Notes under the pieces: model-generated | Seen by the model: the letters and a program-made list of their open reading frames with translations, nothing else | What the model was told of the DNA's origin: nothing | Database searches by the model: none | DNA from: Octopus vulgaris | Taxonomy: Eukaryota | Length of the DNA stretch: 64,000 nt | NCBI GenBank assembly: GCA_951406725.2 | Contig: OX597825.1 | Location: forward strand, 52,080,001-52,144,000 | Direction: 5' to 3' | Translations under genes and position numbers: made by a program | Part shown: one piece after another, positions 1,475-55,590 of the stretch | How the letters are laid out: each line of letters starts with the position of its first letter | Position numbering within the stretch: position 1 is the stretch's first letter

Positions 1475-1589
1475 CACGCACAAACAACAACAACAACAAA
1501 TTCCATCTGACCCATGGAAGCATAGAAATGTGGATATTAAATGATAATTATACATATATATATATTTATATATATATATATATATAAGC

Positions 1590-2180
1590 AAAGTAGCTAG
1601 TCATAAAATCTCAAGAAGAGATAGAATAAGTAACGTATACTAAACAGTAAATAGAGATGCCACATCAGAGTGGCAGGTGAATGGTACTACTAGTTTAACC
1701 CCAGGCAGATTCTCCGCCAGGTGGTTTTCTGTGTGAGCTCTGCACCCTTTATATACAATATATCGCTAGCAGGGTGAGTGAACCCTTACTACCCTCCAGC
1801 AGCTGACAGGATCCCAGGACCAGCCAGTTTTGAGCTATTTGGCTCACATCAGCCACGTGCACCTGCACAGTGGAGTGATAGCTAAGATCCACTTCTGCCA
1901 GTGATATACTGTAAACAAAGTGACCATCGGTCATTGATTTGCAAGAAACAAAATAGCTAGTTATAAAATCTCAGGGAAGAGATACAGTAGTAATGCATAC
2001 TAAACAGTCCTGCAATCCTGTCAGCTGCTGGAAGGTAGTAGAGGTTTGCTCCCTCTACTAGTGATATATTGTATATAAAGGGTGCAAAGCTTGCACCGAA
2101 AACCAGCTGGTGGAGAATCCGCTTGGGGTTAAACTAATAGTAGCATTCATCTGCCACTTTGATGTGGCTACTCACTTTAC
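1590..2180. mobile_element. Penelope-pLTR/retrozyme-like non-autonomous element: minus-strand ~360-nt monomer plus partial repeat, followed by an inverted copy
   Basis: Direct repeat at a 360-bp period (TAGCTAG at 1594 and 1954). Arm ~1657-1820 is inverted against ~2007-2175. Hammerhead motif on the minus strand. Starts right after a (TA)n tract. Confidence 0.75.
1815..1855 (-). ncRNA. Degenerate type-I hammerhead ribozyme
   Basis: Minus strand reads UGG CUGAUGU GAGC-caaaua-GCUC AAAA CUGGCUGG UC CUG. Most departures from consensus (CGAAA>CAAAA, ACCGGCCGGT>ACTGGCTGGT) fit CpG decay. Confidence 0.65.
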
Positions 2181-2980
2181 TTTATATGTGCGTGTGTGTT
2201 CGCTTGTCAATTGCAACCTATCAGGACATTAAAGATTTGTTTTCAGTAGTGAAGGTTTGTGTAGGATCAACCACAATATTTGGAAATGCCGATAGCAAAA
2301 AGTTAGTGCAAATGTTTTCCCCAAACACAATGACCATCAGACTGTAGGATTTTTCTATTACAGTTCTCCATCTTCTGTCTTTCTTACCTTTACCATGACT
2401 TAGAGTCTAACCTACTCTGGCTGGTCAAATCTGCACCTGGGTAGCAAACCAGAAATTTCTAAGTCCTCACAAAATACACACAACCTCCATCCCCAACCAC
2501 CACCACATAATTTGCTGTTCTGTTAAGGTGAGATCAACAAAATGGTATTCCATCCATTGAGAGATGAATATCATTTAATGTTCAGAGTATTAAAACAAGA
2601 GCTATCAATAGTTTCTTGCCATTAAGACACTTGTTAGGCAGGCTGTTTTCTCATAGTTTCTCATGTACCAGTATCCTAATTTTCAAATAGATCAAAACAT
2701 GTGTTCAGAGCCCAAAGAATGTTTGGAGACAAGGCACATTATGAAAACCTGTTCAACCACATGTTTTAATGACAAGAAATGATTAGTAGTGCTCATTTTA
2801 ATACTTCGTACATTAAATGATACATACATACATATACATATAAATATATATAAGAGATAATGGTGTCATTGAGACCCAAAGGTGTCAGGTAATACTGAAT
2901 AAATGCTATAGACAAACCATAGTTAAGTTCCAGATTCGGTAATATTGTGAATAAAGGGCTCAACATTGGTTCTATGTCAA

Positions 2981-9564: not shown

Positions 9565-9782
9565 AGGCAACAAGCTGGGAGAATCATTAGCATGCTGGGC
9601 GAAATGATTAGCATTACTTCGTCTGCCGCTACGTTCTGAGTTCAAATTCCACCAAAGTCGACTTTGCCTTTCATCCTTTCAGGGTCGATCAAATAAGTCC
9701 CAGTTATGCACTGGGGTCGATATAATGACTAACCCCCTTCCCCCAAAATTTTCAAGGTCTTGTGCCTAGAATAGAAATAATT
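9565..9782 (+). mobile_element. SINE family C (tRNA-like head; central CCTTTCATCCTTTC.GGGTCGAT domain resembling MetaSINE/Sauria-type cores)
   Basis: B-box-like GAGTTCAAATTCC. Near-duplicate at 9928-10140, fragment at 14465-14560. Confidence 0.75.
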
Positions 9783-9927: not shown

Positions 9928-10140
9928 TGGCGAGCTGGCAGAAACGTTAGCATGCTGGGCAAAATGTTTAGCAGTATTTTGTCAGTCTTTACGTTCTGAG
10001 TTCAAATTCCACCAAGGTCAACTTTGCCTTTCATCCTTTTGGGGTCAATAAATTAAAAAGCAGTTGTGTGCTGGAATCGATCTAATCGACTGGTCCCTGC
10101 CCCCAAAATGTTCAGGCCTTGTGCCAAGAGTAGAAAAGAA
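9928..10140 (+). mobile_element. SINE family C, second copy
   Basis: GGCGAGCTGGCAGAAACGTTAGCATGCTGGGC...GAGTTCAAATTCC...; aligns with 9565-9782. Confidence 0.8.
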
Positions 10141-23028: not shown

Positions 23029-24436
23029 CATCATCATCATTTAACGTTCGTTCTCCATGCTAGCATGGGTTGGACGGTTCAACTGGGGTCTGGGTAGCCC
23101 GAAGGCTGCACCAGGCCAGTCAGATCTGGCAGTGTTTCTACAGCTGGATGCCCTTCCTAACGCCAACCACTCCGAGAGTGTAGTGGGTGATTTTATGTGC
23201 CACCGACACAGGTGCCAGACGAGGCTGGCGAACGGCCACGCTCGGATGGTGTTTTTTATATGCCACCGACACAGGTGCCAGACGAGGCTGGCAGACAGCC
23301 ACGCTCGGATGGTGTTTTTATGTGCCACCGACACAGGTGCCAGATGAGGTTGGCGAATGGCCACGATCGGATGGTGTTTGTTACGTGCCTGCAGCACGGA
23401 AGCCAGTCGATGCGGTACTGGCTATGGCCACGTTCGGATGGTTTTCTTGTGTGCCACCGGCACTGGTACCACAAAGATACAAATCCCATTGATGTTCATC
23501 TATTTTGATTTGTTTTTTGATTTACACTTGCCTCAACAGGTCTTCACAAGTGTCATGTGCCACCGACACAGGTGCCAGATGAGGCTGGCGAAACGGCCAC
23601 GAACGGATGGTGTTTGTTAATTGCCCACAGCAAGAAGGCCAGTCGATGCGGTACTGGCTACCGCCACGTTTGGATAGTTTTCTTGTGTGCCACCGGCACT
23701 GGTACCACAAAGATACAAATTCCATTGATGTTCATCTATTTTGATTTGTTTTGATTTGATTTTCACTTGCCTCAACAGGTCTTCACAGTGTCACAAGAAG
23801 GAAGGAAGGTATGCACAGGTGGACTGACTACGTCCCAGGTAGGGGCCACGGGTTATGGCCTGACTAGTCTTGCCGGGTCTTCGGATGGTGTTTTTATGTG
23901 CCACCGACACAGGTGCCAGATGAGGCTGGCGAACGGCCACGATCGGATGGTGTTTGTTATGTGCCCACAGCACAGAGGCCAGTCGATGCGGCATTGGCTA
24001 CGGCCACGTTCGGATGGTTTTCTCGTGTGCCACCGTACTGGTATCACAAAGATACAAATTCCATTGATGTTCATCTATTTTGATTTGTTTTGATTTGATT
24101 TTCACTTGCCTCAAAAGGTCTTCACAAGTGTCACAAGAGGGAAGGTATGCACAGGTGGACTGAATACGTCCCAGGTAGGGGCCACGGGTTATGGCCTGAC
24201 TAGTCTTGCCGGGTCTTTGGATGGTGTTTTTATGTGCCACCGACACAGGTGCCAGATGAGGCTGGCAAACGGCCACGATCGGATGGTGTTTGTTACTTGC
24301 CCACAGCACGGAGGCCAGTCGATGCGGTACTGGCTACGGCCACGTTTGGATGGTTTTCTTGTGTGCCACCGGCACTGGTACCACAAAGATACAAATTCCA
24401 TTGATGTTCATCTATTTTGATTTGTTTTTTGATTTG
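23028..24436 (-). mobile_element. Family B element with expanded, hierarchical internal tandem repeats
   Basis: (CAT)n end, followed by repeated TGTGCCACCGACACAGGTGCCAGA.GAGGCTGGCGAACGGCCAC units and larger repeated blocks. Confidence 0.85.
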
Positions 24437-24438
24437 AT

Positions 24439-28644: not shown

Positions 28645-28780
28645 AGCCGAAATTGCGAAGATGATCCGGTTCTTGACTGATGACTGAGAGCTTTGAAAGT
28701 CCCATCCGTGTTTTTTGTGTCGTCTTCTAAATGTTTCACGTTCTTGTCCCAGTTTATGTATTTTTTTATTTTTTTACTTT

Positions 28781-31912: not shown

Positions 31913-32195
31913 TATTACTGGTGAAGTCCTGTTTATAGGCTTACCCTGGGTTTCTCACCACAAAGAGTATCTTTATGGTATATCATCAGACCCTAAGACA
32001 TGTTGGCCTATGGCCTCTTTAAAGTATTGAGCAGGAAATGAAGTGGATATAAACAATGGGTGCTATCTCTTCATTGTTTATATCCACTTTCATTTCTCCC
32101 TCAATACTTTAAAGAGGCCATAGGCCAACATGTCTTAGGGTCTGATGATATACCATAAAGATACTCTTTGTGGCGAAAAACCTAGTGCAACCAGT

Positions 32196-33551: not shown

Positions 33552-33624
33552 AGTCAGCTATGAGACTCGAACTCACATCCCTGTGATTACATGTCAAGTG
33601 CTTTACCTTTCAGCTAAACTGTCC
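33552..33624 (-). pseudogene. tRNA-derived sequence (UGU in the anticodon-like loop, Thr-like) inside a repeat element
   Basis: Minus strand GGACAGTTTAGCTGAAAGGTAAAGCACTTGACATGTAATCACAGGGATGTGAGTTCGAGTCTCAT... has an A box, a B box (GTTCGAGTC) and a downstream T5. The cloverleaf is imperfect. Confidence 0.6.
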
Positions 33625-33905: not shown

Positions 33906-33935
<30 letters not shown>

Positions 33936-33937
<2 letters not shown>

Positions 33938-34497
33938 ATAGTTATCGCCATACTAATATGGCATTCTTATAAAAATAAGAATAAAGCTGTCCGCTTATTA
34001 GCTCCATGAGGCCATCGCCTTAAGTTAGCTATTTGATACACAAACTGTATCCATATAACCTTCGAACAAGGGAGGTCTGTCGCTCCACACTACTTGACCG
34101 GCAGCTACAGACGCGTTTCGGGGTATTGCCCCTTTTCAATGCAGCGTAGCCAGACCAGTAGGTGTCGCTTCCGACAATCTCTGTTCGAAGGTTTTATTTA
34201 CCTAGCTTCGGTGGAATACATCCACTTGTTTTCAATAATAGAAATATTAAAATTACTAAGTCTGTAGCTGCCGGTCAAGTAGTGTGGAGCGACTGACCTC
34301 CCTTGTTCGAAGGTTATATGGATACAGTTTGTGTATCAAATAGCTAACTTAAGGTGATGGCCTCATGGAGCTAATAAGCGGACAGCTTTATTTTTATTTT
34401 TATAAGAATGCCATATTAGTATGGCGATAACTATTATTTTCCGGGAACGCTGCCGTTGTTCTCTTTTAGAGAGACTTAGTAATTTTAATATTTCTAT

Positions 34498-34500
<3 letters not shown>
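33936..34500. mobile_element. Young retrozyme/pLTR-like element in (TA)n: ~363-nt monomer present as two inverted, circularly permuted pieces
   Basis: 33936-34112 is inverted against 34260-34438, and 34235-34262 is inverted against 34473-34500. Hammerhead at 34104-34145. Confidence 0.85.
34104..34145 (-). ncRNA. Type-I hammerhead ribozyme (variant core UUGAAAA)
   Basis: GCUGCA UUGAAAA GGGG-caaua-CCCC GAAA CGCG UC UGUAGC. Stems I and II and the palindromic stem III are intact. Confidence 0.7.
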
Positions 34501-36054: not shown

Positions 36055-37347
36055 TAGAGCGTCTGCTTAGATGAGATGCAGTTTAGTTTTGTTCTGGATA
36101 GAAGCACCATTGATGCCATATTCCTGATTTGACACCTGCAGGAGAAATACCTAGGTAAAGATAAACCCCTCTACTTAGCTTTCGTGTGCAGCAGATGCAC
36201 AGGGGCAATAGACACAGATACTCAGAAAACAGATTCCATCACACTCCAAGGGGAGAAACTAGAAGTAGTTGATAGTTTCTGCTACCTAGGTGACCAAGTT
36301 AGTAGTGGAGGTGGATGCTCAGAGAGTGTCACCACTAGAATACAAATAGCCTGGGCAAAGTTTAGAAAGCTCCTACCCCTACTGGTGACAAAAATTCTCT
36401 CGCTCAGAGTGAAAGATAGGTTGTACAATGCATGTTTGTGAACTCCCATGCTTCACAGTAGTGAAAGATGGGCTGTGACTTCAGAGGACATGCGTAGGCT
36501 TGAAAGAAATGAAGCTAGCATGATCCGCTGGATGTGTAATGTCAGTGTACAAACACGACAGAGTGTAAGTGTCCTGAGAGAAATGCTGGATATAAGAAGC
36601 ATCGGATGTGATGTGCAAGTGAGACATTTGTGCTGGTATGGTCATGTACTATGGATGGATGAGGAGAGATGTGTGAAGAAGTGCCAGTCCCAAACAGTTG
36701 AAGGAATCCGGGGTAGAGATAGACCCAGGAAGACATGGGATGAGGTGGTCAGGCATGATCTTTGAACGGTGGGTTTCACAGAGGCAATAACAAAAGACTG
36801 AGATCTCTGGAGATATGCTGTGACTGCGAAGACCCGACAAATAATGTGAGTTCATGGCTATTCCCTGCACCAGCTTCACACAGCAGCCCCAGGCCATCCA
36901 AAGTACCTTGGATCGCAGGACAGCCTGCTGTGCTTACCTTGGATTGTAGGCGACCTGCTGTGCTTGAGGAAACCTATTGAATCAAGTACATCAACATCAA
37001 AATGAAAGTCAAATTGAAATTGTAATCGTGATACCTGTGCCAGTGGCACATAAAAAGCATCATCCAAACATGGCCGATGCCAGCACCACCTTGATTGGCT
37101 TCTGTGCCGGTGACATGTAAAAAGTTCCAACCGATCATGGCTGCTGCAAGCCTCCCCTGGCTCCTATGCTGGTGGCACATACAAAGCACCCACTACATTC
37201 AATGAGTGGTTGGTGTTAGGAAGGGCATCCAGCTGTAGAGACACTGCCAGATCAGACTGGAGCCTGGTGCAGCCTCCTGGCTTCCCAGACACCGGCTGAA
37301 CCGTCCAACCCATGCTAGCATTGAAAACAGATGTTAAACGATGATGA

Positions 37348-43406: not shown

Positions 43407-43463
43407 TTCTACTGATGAGGCAAAGTGTTTCTAAATGCAAAGCCAGAAATCCAGGATCTGGAA
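43407..43463 (+). ncRNA. Type-I hammerhead ribozyme heading a pLTR-like fragment (to ~43680)
   Basis: UUCUA CUGAUGA GGC...GCC A GAAA UCC-A-GGA UC UGGAA. The downstream sequence is homologous to 24810-25310. Confidence 0.7.
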
Positions 43464-47659: not shown

Positions 47660-48872
47660 CAGGGTGTGATGGGTAAATTGCCGCCATTTTATATTTTTTA
47701 TTTTGAAATGGCACATTGTCCGTTTTTAATTTTGTTGACTACAAGTAAAACTGCACCATGACACAATTCACATTGCTGGAAATTTTGAAATGACATGCTG
47801 TACTACTTAACATTCGTACTAGAAGTTCCAATATGAACATTTCAGAGTGTTTGGGTGTCAATCTGATGACAGTGCAGAGGATTCAAAAAGTGTTGGATCA
47901 GTCTAATGGTGATTACAAAGGTATGGCAGCTTGGAAAGCTCACTCTTATCGTTCTGATAAGAAAAGAACTCCTGAATTTGTAGGTGAGATCCAGGCCATG
48001 ATTGACAACAATCCTTCCAAGTCAATCAGGTCCATCGCCAGGGACATGAGAGTGTCTGAGTTTCTTATCAAGCAGGTAGTGCATGAAGACATTTGGTATT
48101 CCTCATACAAGGTGAGAAAGGGGCAATTTTTATCCCAAGCCATCAAGGACAACAGGAAAGACCATGCTACAAAGCTTTTGAACAAACTCAAGCATCTCCT
48201 CCAACTGAACATGCTTCGCTTTTTCTCAGACGAGAAAAATTTCTGCCAGGATAAGATGGGGAACATACAGAACAATTGTTGGATTGCTGTGTCCCCAAAA
48301 CATGTACTGAGAGTGATAGAAATCAAACATCCACTCCAGTCAACAATTGACGTTATGCCTCCATTCATCTTCCCACAGTCTCACAAGAAGGTCTACATCA
48401 AGTCCCTGGAGGAGGTAGTGCTGCCCTGTATCAAGAGGGTGGCTACTGAAAAACCCTATGTCTAGAAACAGGACTCTGCACCATGCCACACAAGCATGAG
48501 AGTTATGGCTTTCAGACAATTTCTGTGGCCACATCAGCCCTAACATCTGGCCACCTAACTCCACAGAATGCAACCCTGTTGATTATTATGAGTGGGGTAC
48601 AGGTGAGTTAGAGACCCACAAAACTCTTTGTAACACCAAAGATAAACTGAAGGCAAGGATTATGGCAGCATTCACAAATTTAAACAAGGCATCTGTCCAG
48701 AAGAGTTGCAAGAGTTTCTGAAGTTGTCTGGAGGCTGTTATTGAATAAATTTGCTCTTTAGGATTTCGAGATATTTTTTATGTAATTTTGGTAAATATAT
48801 CTGTTAAAATGAGATGTCAGTGTTATTTTCATTTTTGTGTAATTTAGGTAACAATTTATTCACTGCACTCTG
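47660..48872 (+). mobile_element. Tc1/mariner-superfamily DNA transposon (maT/DD37D-like), near full length, defective
   Basis: Imperfect TIRs CAGGGTGTGATGGGTAAATTG / CAATTTATTCACTGCACTCTG. Motifs FFSDEKNF, QDSAPCH and WPPNSTECNPVDY. Confidence 0.9.
47833..48465 (+). pseudogene. Transposase ORF remnant (HTH plus first catalytic D), truncated by a stop before QDSAPCH
   Basis: 210-aa ORF with SIRSIARDMRVSE (HTH) and FSDEKNF. Confidence 0.85.
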
Positions 48873-53582: not shown

Positions 53583-55590
53583 CAGTAGATCCCACTTGAT
53601 AAATCCACCTACTTAATGTATCCAAAATGGGTTGGAATGGAATATTTACATAAAATCTCTCTTTTAATGAAGCCAAACAATTGCCTGATAAATTTAATTG
53701 TTGCTGTTTCTCCCTAAAGTGACAACAAGTGGCAGCAAATGAATGAAGTGTTTTTTTTTTGTTTTTTTTTAAATTTTTAAATACCAGTGGGTAGGTGAAA
53801 AAACATGTCATTCTTCATTCATACAGAGAGACAGACACACACACAAGTTGTTCCAAATGTTCAAAATGAAAAGAGAGAGGCAGGACAAATCCATGGCAGA
53901 AAAGATTCAATTATTAGAACATTACAAAGTTCTTGGGGAAAACAACTCAGCAGGAAGCAGCATAGAGTTTGGGAATTTCAAGAGGTCTGGTCCGAATTTG
54001 CTAAATGATGAGATGACCTTTATGCCAAAGGGAAAGCTGTTCATCAAACTCTCTATGATTGGTTTGAATTTATTCACACAAGAAACGTCCCCATCAATGG
54101 CCTAATCCTAATGCACAAAACCAACACCATTGCTCAACCTCCTGGACACAATTTTAAGGCATCTGGAGGTTGGTTTTACCATTGACAAAAAAGACATAGA
54201 ATCTCTTTTAAGGTTCTAAAAGGTAAGCCTAATAGTTCACTAGCTTACATTTTTCTCTTTAGAGAACACAAACTAAGCATTTAATATTTTGCCAGTGATG
54301 CAGCTGAAGCTGATGTGGATGGAGCCCATCAATATCATGAGACAACCATGCAGCTTCTGTTGAAATCGTATCAGCACAGGACATCTACAACACCATTGAA
54401 ACTGGGATCTACTTATGTGCATTACCAGGAAATACATATGTTAGTGTGAGTTGCAAGAAAACTGTGGGGGACTTAAAGATGGCAAAGGGCCATGTGAATT
54501 TGATGGTGGCCTGCAACATGAATAGAGACAAAGATCTGCTCTTAATTGGAAAGGCTGGTTCACCAAAATGTTTCAAAAAATGCTTCTGATTCAGTACGAC
54601 TTTTCAACCAATGACAGAAAAAAACCTATGGAAGATGGCTCAGATCTTGGGATCATTGCTTGCTGGAATCTAGAAGGCAAGTGGTGGTCCTTCTTAATAA
54701 TTGCTTTTCTCTTGTAGTTATCGATGATCTCAAGAATGTCACTTTAAAATTTCTTCCTCCCAAAACAACGTCAGTGCTGCAGCCCTGTGACATGGGGATA
54801 ACCAATGCCATGAAAGACTACTTCAGACATAAAATGTGTGAGATCACCAATGTTATGGAAGACACTGAACGTGACATTTTTGCCCATGAAGTTGCAAAGC
54901 AGATCACCATTTTGGATGCCATATACATGTTGAGCATAACTTGAAAGAAGGGCTCTAGCCAGACAATCAAATATTGTTGGACCAAAGCTAGTTTTGTTTC
55001 GGCCAAAGAATCAAATGAAACCATAGATGTCAACAGAGATTTGATCCTGCCTTCGCTGCCAACTGAATTGACCAAAAGGCAATTCAAGAACTGGTTGTCC
55101 ATAGATGATGGTGCTGTTGTTGCTCCAGAGATCATCACTGAAGAAGAAAAATTGGACGAGATCATTTGTGACATTCAGCAATCTGAGAAGAAAATGAGAG
55201 GAGATGAAGATGGCAACTCTGACGTTGATGTTGATGAAAGAATTCTGAAGCCTTCAACACCAGCTGAAATGAGACACTCTCTCACTCGATTAGGAAATGG
55301 TCTTGAAAGTTTTGATTTCAATGATATGAATCCTTTTATAACTATTAAGGAAAAAAAATCAATGCAGAGTTGCAAACAAAGCATCCAGCAAAGCAAACAA
55401 CACTTGACAAATTTTTCATTCAGCGACATCGTTTATAATGTTTTTATTAGTGTATTCGCACATGTATGTATTCTAATAAATACATATGTTTAATCAATCG
55501 GTACATTTTGTTCCCTTGGTTTATAAATCCCTCGTTTAATAAATCCAAATTAGGTGATCCCAAGATGGATTTATAAAGTGGGGTCTACTA
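53583..55590 (+). mobile_element. pogo/Tigger-family DNA transposon, near full length, defective
   Basis: TIRs CAGTAGATCCCACTTGATAAATCC / GGATTTATAAAGTGGGGTCTACTA with TA flanks. FKASGGWF (CENP-B HTH), DIYNTIETG, FLPPKTTSVLQPCDMGI (DDE_1) and an acidic C-terminus. Confidence 0.9.

Follow-up and report, generated by a model that had tools for sequence, protein, structure and literature searches.

Near the start of the window (the whole 64-kb stretch of DNA that was analysed) lies an element, A, which is very probably a retrozyme-like element that was moved by the machinery of Penelope-like elements (PLEs). We also consider it likely that a PLE inserted A at a (TA)n site, and that A represents an aged, decayed member of a multi-copy family of 360-nt repeats that carry a type I hammerhead motif. 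The class of element is already known (a retrozyme with the known anatomy of PLEs), and the interesting part is the breakpoint. The idea that inverted copies begin at the cut site of the ribozyme survives as a testable hotspot, and it hints at a possible role of the ribozyme in setting the point at which copying ends.

The window consists of AT-rich animal DNA with many microsatellites and is packed with short repeats, which look similar to cephalopod repeats. We see directly the anatomy of A, its repeat family, the head-to-tail continuation of the unit, the joint between the arms, and the letters by which the family restores most of the ribozyme. The features are listed in Table 1. We number unit positions (u) from the first base past the predicted cut, which is u1 (1817 on the minus strand, or 2010 in the inverted arm). 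In this numbering, the direct arm of A runs from u170 through the ribozyme to u232. The two 3' ends are at u172 and u232, the tail is one-sided, and both flanks are AT-rich or microsatellite sequence.

Table 1. Features of element A, its flanks, and the comparator element B, in window positions.
Feature	Position	Strand	Basis or remarks
Left flank, (TA)n microsatellite, likely target site	1550-1585	.	Sequence; a target-site duplication is undiscernible
Element A, whole	1586-2181	- arm, + inverted arm	Window self-comparison
Direct arm of A, 423 nt	1586-2008	-	One 360-nt unit plus 63 nt (1.17 units)
Monomer of A, 360 nt	1586-1945	-	45% GC; predicted to fold strongly as a circle
Tail of A, ~60 nt	1586-1645	-	3' end of the direct arm; missing from the inverted arm
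63-nt overlap, copy 1	1586-1648	+	Self-alignment
63-nt overlap, copy 2	1946-2008	+	Self-alignment; contains the 5'-truncated start of the direct arm
Decayed type I hammerhead, extended stem I	1803-1870	-	Rfam, pairing, family letters
Internal inverted repeat, arm 1	1747-1772	.	21 of 26 positions pair with 1895-1920
Internal inverted repeat, arm 2	1895-1920	.	Partner of 1747-1772
Head-to-head junction, GUC triplet	2007-2009	+	GT fits both arms, C the inverted arm only
Inverted arm of A, 175 nt	2007-2181	+	u-2 to u172; 84.6% identity with the direct arm
Right flank, TA/TG microsatellite-like	2182-2198	.	Sequence
Comparator element B, unit of 363 nt	33935-34500	.	Self-comparison; arms 98.3% identical
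Direct arm of B	34259->33935	-
Inverted arm of B, with tail	34260-34500
Hammerhead of B, U3-A8 core	34145-34104	-

A reading of the sequence alone (the sequence-only reading) had proposed that A has a direct-repeat period of 360 bp (1594/1954) and contains an inverted copy. The period of 360 stands (84% identity over 64 columns between 1586-1648 and 1946-2008; E = 1.6e-12), but its basis is just the 63-nt overlap. A contains one monomer plus these 63 nt, so we rejected the description of A as two monomers. The inverted copy is clear: 2007-2181 is the reverse complement of 1820-1646 (E = 1e-51), with 27 mismatches over the 175 nt (18 transitions; 8 in CpG-like context). Both repeated parts of A are equally diverged (~84% identity), as expected from one insertion event. 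A contig from run X6 (record 32, organism B) spans 1915-2117 with 4 differences and 1 gap; it bridges the joint, which rules out an assembly artefact at the junction.

No open reading frame of at least 100 amino acids is in or touches A, and this includes any frame for a reverse transcriptase (RT) or a GIY-YIG endonuclease. When the 64-kb window was compared to itself, no further copy of family A appeared. Folded as a circle, the monomer of A has a z-score of -6.2, versus -3.7 to +1.9 for 25 control stretches. Pairing between the two arms of the internal inverted repeat closes a long stem that bears the ribozyme.

The decayed hammerhead that the sequence-only reading had noticed on the minus strand (1815-1855) is indeed present. 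It has the core CUGAUGU (1852-1846), a stem II of 4 bp (GAGC/GCUC) with the loop CAAAUA (1845-1832), AAAA where GAAA is expected (1831-1828), a helix III that is a short near-palindrome (1828-1819), and the triplet GUC (1820-1818), with the predicted cut between 1818 and 1817. Rfam's Hammerhead_HH9 matches 1870->1795 with 20 bits (E = 0.029), which is below its gathering score of 52. Nineteen of the 20 listed pairs in stems I-III are possible in the window copy, five of them as G-U. The minimum free energy structure of the isolated motif differs from the hammerhead fold (z = -0.33). As in Rfam's Hammerhead_1 (RF00163) and Hammerhead_HH9 (RF02275), stem I is followed by CUGANG, a 4-bp stem II with a CAAAUA loop, GAAAC, a short palindromic helix III, and GUC, and stem I has a bulged extension; in contrast to these models, positions 9 and 12 of the window copy are U and A. 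Because of these two core changes, the ribozyme of the window copy is, judging from its sequence, probably dead.

Across the whole window, the best 150 of 239 Rfam matches were all microsatellite-driven microRNA noise, apart from one tRNA-like match. The tRNA-like match (33552-33623, minus strand) has 40 bits, which exceeds the Rfam threshold, and is probably a tRNA-derived repeat.

To describe the family of A, we used the assembled contigs of 4 of 24 runs (X1, X6, X10, and X11, from the organisms labelled A, B, D, and E). Contigs were counted if they matched the stretch of A, with a reference beginning at 1586, at 80% identity or above. There were 792, 1192, 607, and 1163 such contigs in X1, X6, X10, and X11, which are counts of contigs and give no genomic copy number. 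The family is multi-copy and dispersed, with heterogeneous loose ends in the contigs from the four organisms.

The sequence-only reading had suggested checking if a consensus restores CUGAUGA, CGAAA, and the palindrome of helix III. CGAAA is restored: G12 (1831) is present in 85%, 78%, 67%, and 75% of the depth in X1, X6, X10, and X11 (the order used below). The palindrome is restored in part. The family letter at 1822 in helix III has 69%, 64%, 77%, and 75% of the depth, but no change at 1826 is among the 40 of 333 substitutions listed. (In one contig, helix III has another palindrome, which is interrupted and 11 nt long.) As for CUGAUGA, A9 appears only as an inserted A, in 6%, 4%, 19%, and 10% of the depth (3, 2, 4, and 5 contigs), and the 40 of 333 substitutions listed contain none at 1846. 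Stem I also changes, at 1855 (72%, 59%, 46%, and 73% of the depth), 1816 (45%, 44%, 49%, and 68%), and 1814 (61%, 58%, 56%, and 79%). These three changes convert two G-U pairs and one G-G mismatch to G-C, which gives a stem of 5 bp G-C.

Some contigs continue from one unit into the next. The head-to-tail joint 1973->1659 is in 3+1+1 contigs, whose shorter sides reach up to 62 nt; there are other head-to-tail joints at 1977->1628 and 1977->1634. These joints extend past the overlap in the window copy itself. The head-to-tail joints of the family imply periods of 359 and 362, and two imply 343 and 326. Also, 17, 24, and 17 contigs in three runs depart from the reference past 2181 into AT-rich sequence (agreement of 0.49-0.54), which suggests that the family has a preferred short 3' end at about u172-177. 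Other contigs skip or replace the ribozyme hairpin (1726-1912, 1729-1849, 1760-1863, or 1774-1904), and these are possibly ribozyme-less subfamilies.

A 28-letter pattern for family A had no matches in metagenome and viral contigs. A 19-letter pattern for stem II matched 10 loci, none of which are members of the family: three are intact hammerheads of an unrelated element and seven are the motif only. The three intact type I hammerheads (L002 988-1032, L008 988-1032, and L009 54-98) have the same stem II and loop as A and match Rfam's Hammerhead_1 with 43-49 bits (gathering score 34). Their host is a ~1.4-kb element from an unrelated organism, flanked by palindrome-rich AT repeats. Family A is probably an undescribed family of retrozyme-like elements.

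Two other accounts of what A is deserve mention. It is very improbable that there is no ribozyme at all, with the motif having arisen by chance in a SINE or MITE rich in hairpins. The score of only 20 bits, the two core mismatches, and the presence of A9 in just 4-19% of the depth would fit with this, but in the family G12 is restored and three positions of stem I and one of helix III become G-C, and the layout and the loop match Hammerhead_1. A truncated pseudo-LTR remnant of a full-length, protein-coding PLE, with no free-standing retrozyme, is also improbable, if less so. The anatomy of the insertion is that of PLEs, and passages of PMC4209133 describe most PLE hammerheads as single motifs from truncated elements. 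On the other hand, the unit closes on itself after ~360 nt, both in the window copy and in other copies; there is no long frame; and a 4-bp stem II with a CAAAUA loop is the canonical layout of retrozymes, as opposed to the minimal type with a long stem II. We prefer the reading of A as a retrozyme-like element that was inserted by a PLE.

The sequence-only reading had also compared A to the element at 34 kb (B) and had argued for a common mechanism from the shared unit length, polarity, and breakpoint. It had seen no primary similarity between the two, and this is correct: local alignments of A to B have scores of 21-25, which is the level of shuffled sequences (means of 22-24; 40-81% of shuffles do equally well). 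B is much younger than A because the arms of B are nearly identical (98.3%). The hammerhead of B reads UUGAAAA, with a 6-bp stem I, and from these letters it looks intact; it has no Rfam match. Its core variant, U3-A8, is known from Schistosoma PLEs, according to passages of PMC4209133. The 3' ends are at u172 (short) and u232 (long) in A and at u171 and u238 in B, and the homology of the inverted arm begins at u-2 in both. The shared ends and the u-2 register support a common mechanism, but this mechanism is already known (Penelope-type insertion of a unit of retrozyme size that bears a hammerhead). The similar lengths of the units (360 and 363 nt) are weak evidence, and we rejected them as a strong argument: the units of mussel retrozymes are 350-390 bp (passages of PMC7229834), and two SINE-like copies in the window (9573-9777 and 9933-10136; 81% identical and unrelated to A) are exactly 360 apart, which shows that such spacing can arise by other routes.

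Several other parts of the window have hammerhead-like or repeated sequences. A near-perfect fold-back at about 31930-32190 has, in each of its arms and about 70 nt off centre, a hammerhead-like motif with CUGAUGA and a long stem II, and no Rfam hammerhead match. Single motifs of the minimal hammerhead-like type are at 32984-32958 and 43833-43800 on the minus strand and at 43412-43458 and 28677-28706 on the plus strand. The motif at 43833-43800 has a palindromic helix III; the pair of motifs at 43 kb has no Rfam support. A complex tandem duplication at 23186-24438, with periods of about 63, 235, 341, and 576, lies inside a common repeat. Broken frames at 36133-36765, 47794-48465, and 54615-55493 resemble what we take to be fragments of LINE reverse transcriptases and DNA transposases.

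Where exactly is the head-to-head joint? The inverted copy in A had been said to start just after GTC, with GT microhomology. GT at 2007-2008 does fit both arms, but the similarity to the unit already starts with the G of GUC, at 2007. The C of that triplet (2009) agrees with the inverted arm alone, and we rejected "just after GTC" as an exact description of the start. Given the match at C2009, the joint of A is located 1-3 nt before the scissile bond, if we do not assume one untemplated or mutated base. In B, the overlap GTCT (u-2 to u1) fits both arms, and its joint may be at the cut. A cDNA with a clean end at u1 would require three matches by chance in each element (probability ~0.014 for A and ~0.010 for B); given these low values, A and B are more consistent with a stop at the GUC triplet than with one past it.

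The sequence-only reading had also suggested mapping the breakpoints of other copies. Among the listed joints (15 of 221) and listed rows of letters between the arms (12 of 69), there were nine distinct joints from a direct to an inverted arm on the plus strand. Two of these (1813->2091 and 1973->2026) were excluded, as their between-arm letters are absent, which leaves seven resolved joints. Two of the seven are at or near the cut (chance p ~0.03; one of seven would give p ~0.25). The joint 1890->GCG->2015, from X1 and X6, has a 4-nt overlap that starts exactly at u1 when it is read with the family letters, and its direct arm ends at about u288. The joint 1813->20 letters->2013, from X6, has one arm that ends at u2-u5. 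The other five are elsewhere (1624/1651->2094/2098, 1614->2094, 1705->2139, 1757->2153, and 1729->2151). Four joints of the "opposite strand" type (1971->2178, 1973->2181, 1739->2098, and 1825->2017) were rejected as inversions, as we read them as switches between equivalent arms. The ambiguous joints 2094->2138 and 1904->2093 were not counted; neither is at the cut. In the fold-back at 31930-32190, the joint is ~70 nt upstream of both hammerhead-like motifs.

On balance, we lean towards the ribozyme site being a real stopping hotspot, without a fixed rule. We infer the enzyme, the form of the RNA, and the reason for the stop as follows. The template of A would have been a head-to-tail transcript or a circle. 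The endonuclease of a PLE would nick both strands of the (TA)n site, and each 3' end would prime a cDNA. Two fixed starts about 60 nt apart (a long one at u232 and a short one at about u172) would yield the one-sided tail. The first cDNA would read past the ribozyme into the preceding unit and stop at u170; the second would end at the GUC triplet, owing to either a cut in the RNA at this point or a stall of the enzyme at the ribozyme. The ends of the cDNAs would then anneal over 2-4 nt to form the head-to-head joint.

Two parts of this model are more tentative. That the second cDNA stopped at a 5' end left by clean cleavage, and not at a stall, is plausible, although we lean slightly against it. 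We lean a little more against L1-like twin priming, in which the same RNA molecule would have been the template for both cDNAs, although this too is a fair possibility. The far end of the inverted arm and the start of the direct arm are at u172 and u170 in A and at u238 and u214 in B, and this proximity is the geometry expected of two cDNAs on one RNA, from two cases (joint chance ~0.002, post hoc).

How else could the joint have come to lie at the ribozyme? Perhaps structure in the DNA or cDNA put it there, without RNA cleavage, through the GC-rich palindrome of helix III, stem I, a fold-back, self-priming, or later repair. We consider this unlikely, but several points favor it. In A as in B, the homology begins with the G of GUC, which is the edge of the palindrome and 3 nt before the cut. 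Passages of PMC3846280 propose palindromes at the inverted junctions of rotifer Penelopes, and self-priming, and cleavage was dispensable in vitro: in passages of PMC11167929, a PLE with a dead ribozyme inserted equally well, and zero RNA reads ended at the cut. Against a structure-only origin, the arms are very unequal at the joint of A (u-2 versus u170 of the preceding unit), unlike in a fold-back, and the joint 1890->2015 begins exactly at u1. Later repair is also at odds with the equal divergence of both repeated parts, which points to one event.

We give still less weight to coincidence, or random truncation of the inverted arms, with A and B having been noticed because they hit the ribozyme. 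The list of joints is small and filtered, five of the seven further resolved joints are elsewhere, one match fewer would raise p to ~0.25, and the third hammerhead-like fold-back (31930-32190) departs from the pattern. But the u-2 register is found in two unrelated families of different ages (~4e-4 if random, post hoc), and two of the seven further joints, as given above, are at or near the cut.

The role of the hammerhead in endonuclease-bearing PLEs is stated to be unclear in passages of bioRxiv 10.1101/2021.04.23.441226. If inverted joints cluster at the cleavage triplet in unrelated families, then this role could be tested by counting joints in one genome. The boldest reading of these joints, which we consider rather unlikely, would, if true, supply hammerhead function in the transposition of endonuclease-bearing Penelope elements with its first footprint in a genome. 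In that case, twin priming would also explain the inverted repeats of PLEs, and the spread of retrozymes would be tied directly to PLE enzymes. We found no literature that places the inverted joints of PLEs or retrozymes at the cleavage site, within a scope that left aside older PLE papers, the Terminon paper, repeat-database entries, and supplements. The passages of PMC8557442, PMC3846280, and PMC11167929 do not mention such a joint. In the literature that we searched, "twin priming" was not applied to Penelope inversions, and we found nothing useful about A9U variants of the hammerhead.

Compared to known systems, A combines features of retrozymes and PLEs. Retrozymes have canonical type I hammerheads in short tandem units, and PLEs have been proposed as their movers (passages of PMC7229834). 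Like the animal non-LTR retrozymes in passages of PMC7229834 and bioRxiv 10.64898/2026.07.22.740005, A has a non-coding unit within their range of 170-400 nt, a decayed type I hammerhead motif, head-to-tail units, a monomer predicted to be strongly self-paired as a circle, and ~45% GC, and dispersed monomers are known from that group. Unlike their "active" class, with at least two complete units and intact ribozymes, A has 1.17 units and one decayed ribozyme, and its locus is a monomer-type derivative of a retrozyme. A also differs from these retrozymes in having an inverted arm and a tail; the word "inverted" occurs 0 times in PMC7229834 and once in bioRxiv 10.64898/2026.07.22.740005, outside the body passages considered here.

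These additional features are those of PLEs, which have an inverted truncated copy, a one-sided tail of 30-40 bp, and a bias for (TA)n (passages of PMC8557442 and PMC3846280). In passages of PMC11167929, two starts of reverse transcription account for the tail, and both strands are cut. PLE hammerheads have a palindromic helix III, and pairs of motifs lie on opposite strands 100-700 bp apart (passages of PMC4209133). Like the endonuclease-bearing PLEs in passages of PMC8557442, PMC3846280, and PMC11167929, A has a partial tandem, a head-to-head inverted 5'-truncated copy, a tail at one end, a (TA)n or AT-rich target, microhomology at the 5' joint, and a palindromic helix III. In contrast to these PLEs, A has no RT or GIY-YIG frame, its tail is ~60 nt instead of 30-40 bp, and its hammerhead is canonical while theirs is minimal. 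As in L1 twin priming (passages of PMC9148063), the far end of the inverted 5' part is near the start of the direct part in both A and B; unlike L1 insertions, A has neither a poly(A) nor the L1 target motif, and its priming points look fixed within the family. A unit of retrozyme size that carries the inverted arm and tail of a PLE supports the proposal, from passages of PMC7229834, that PLE enzymes move retrozymes.
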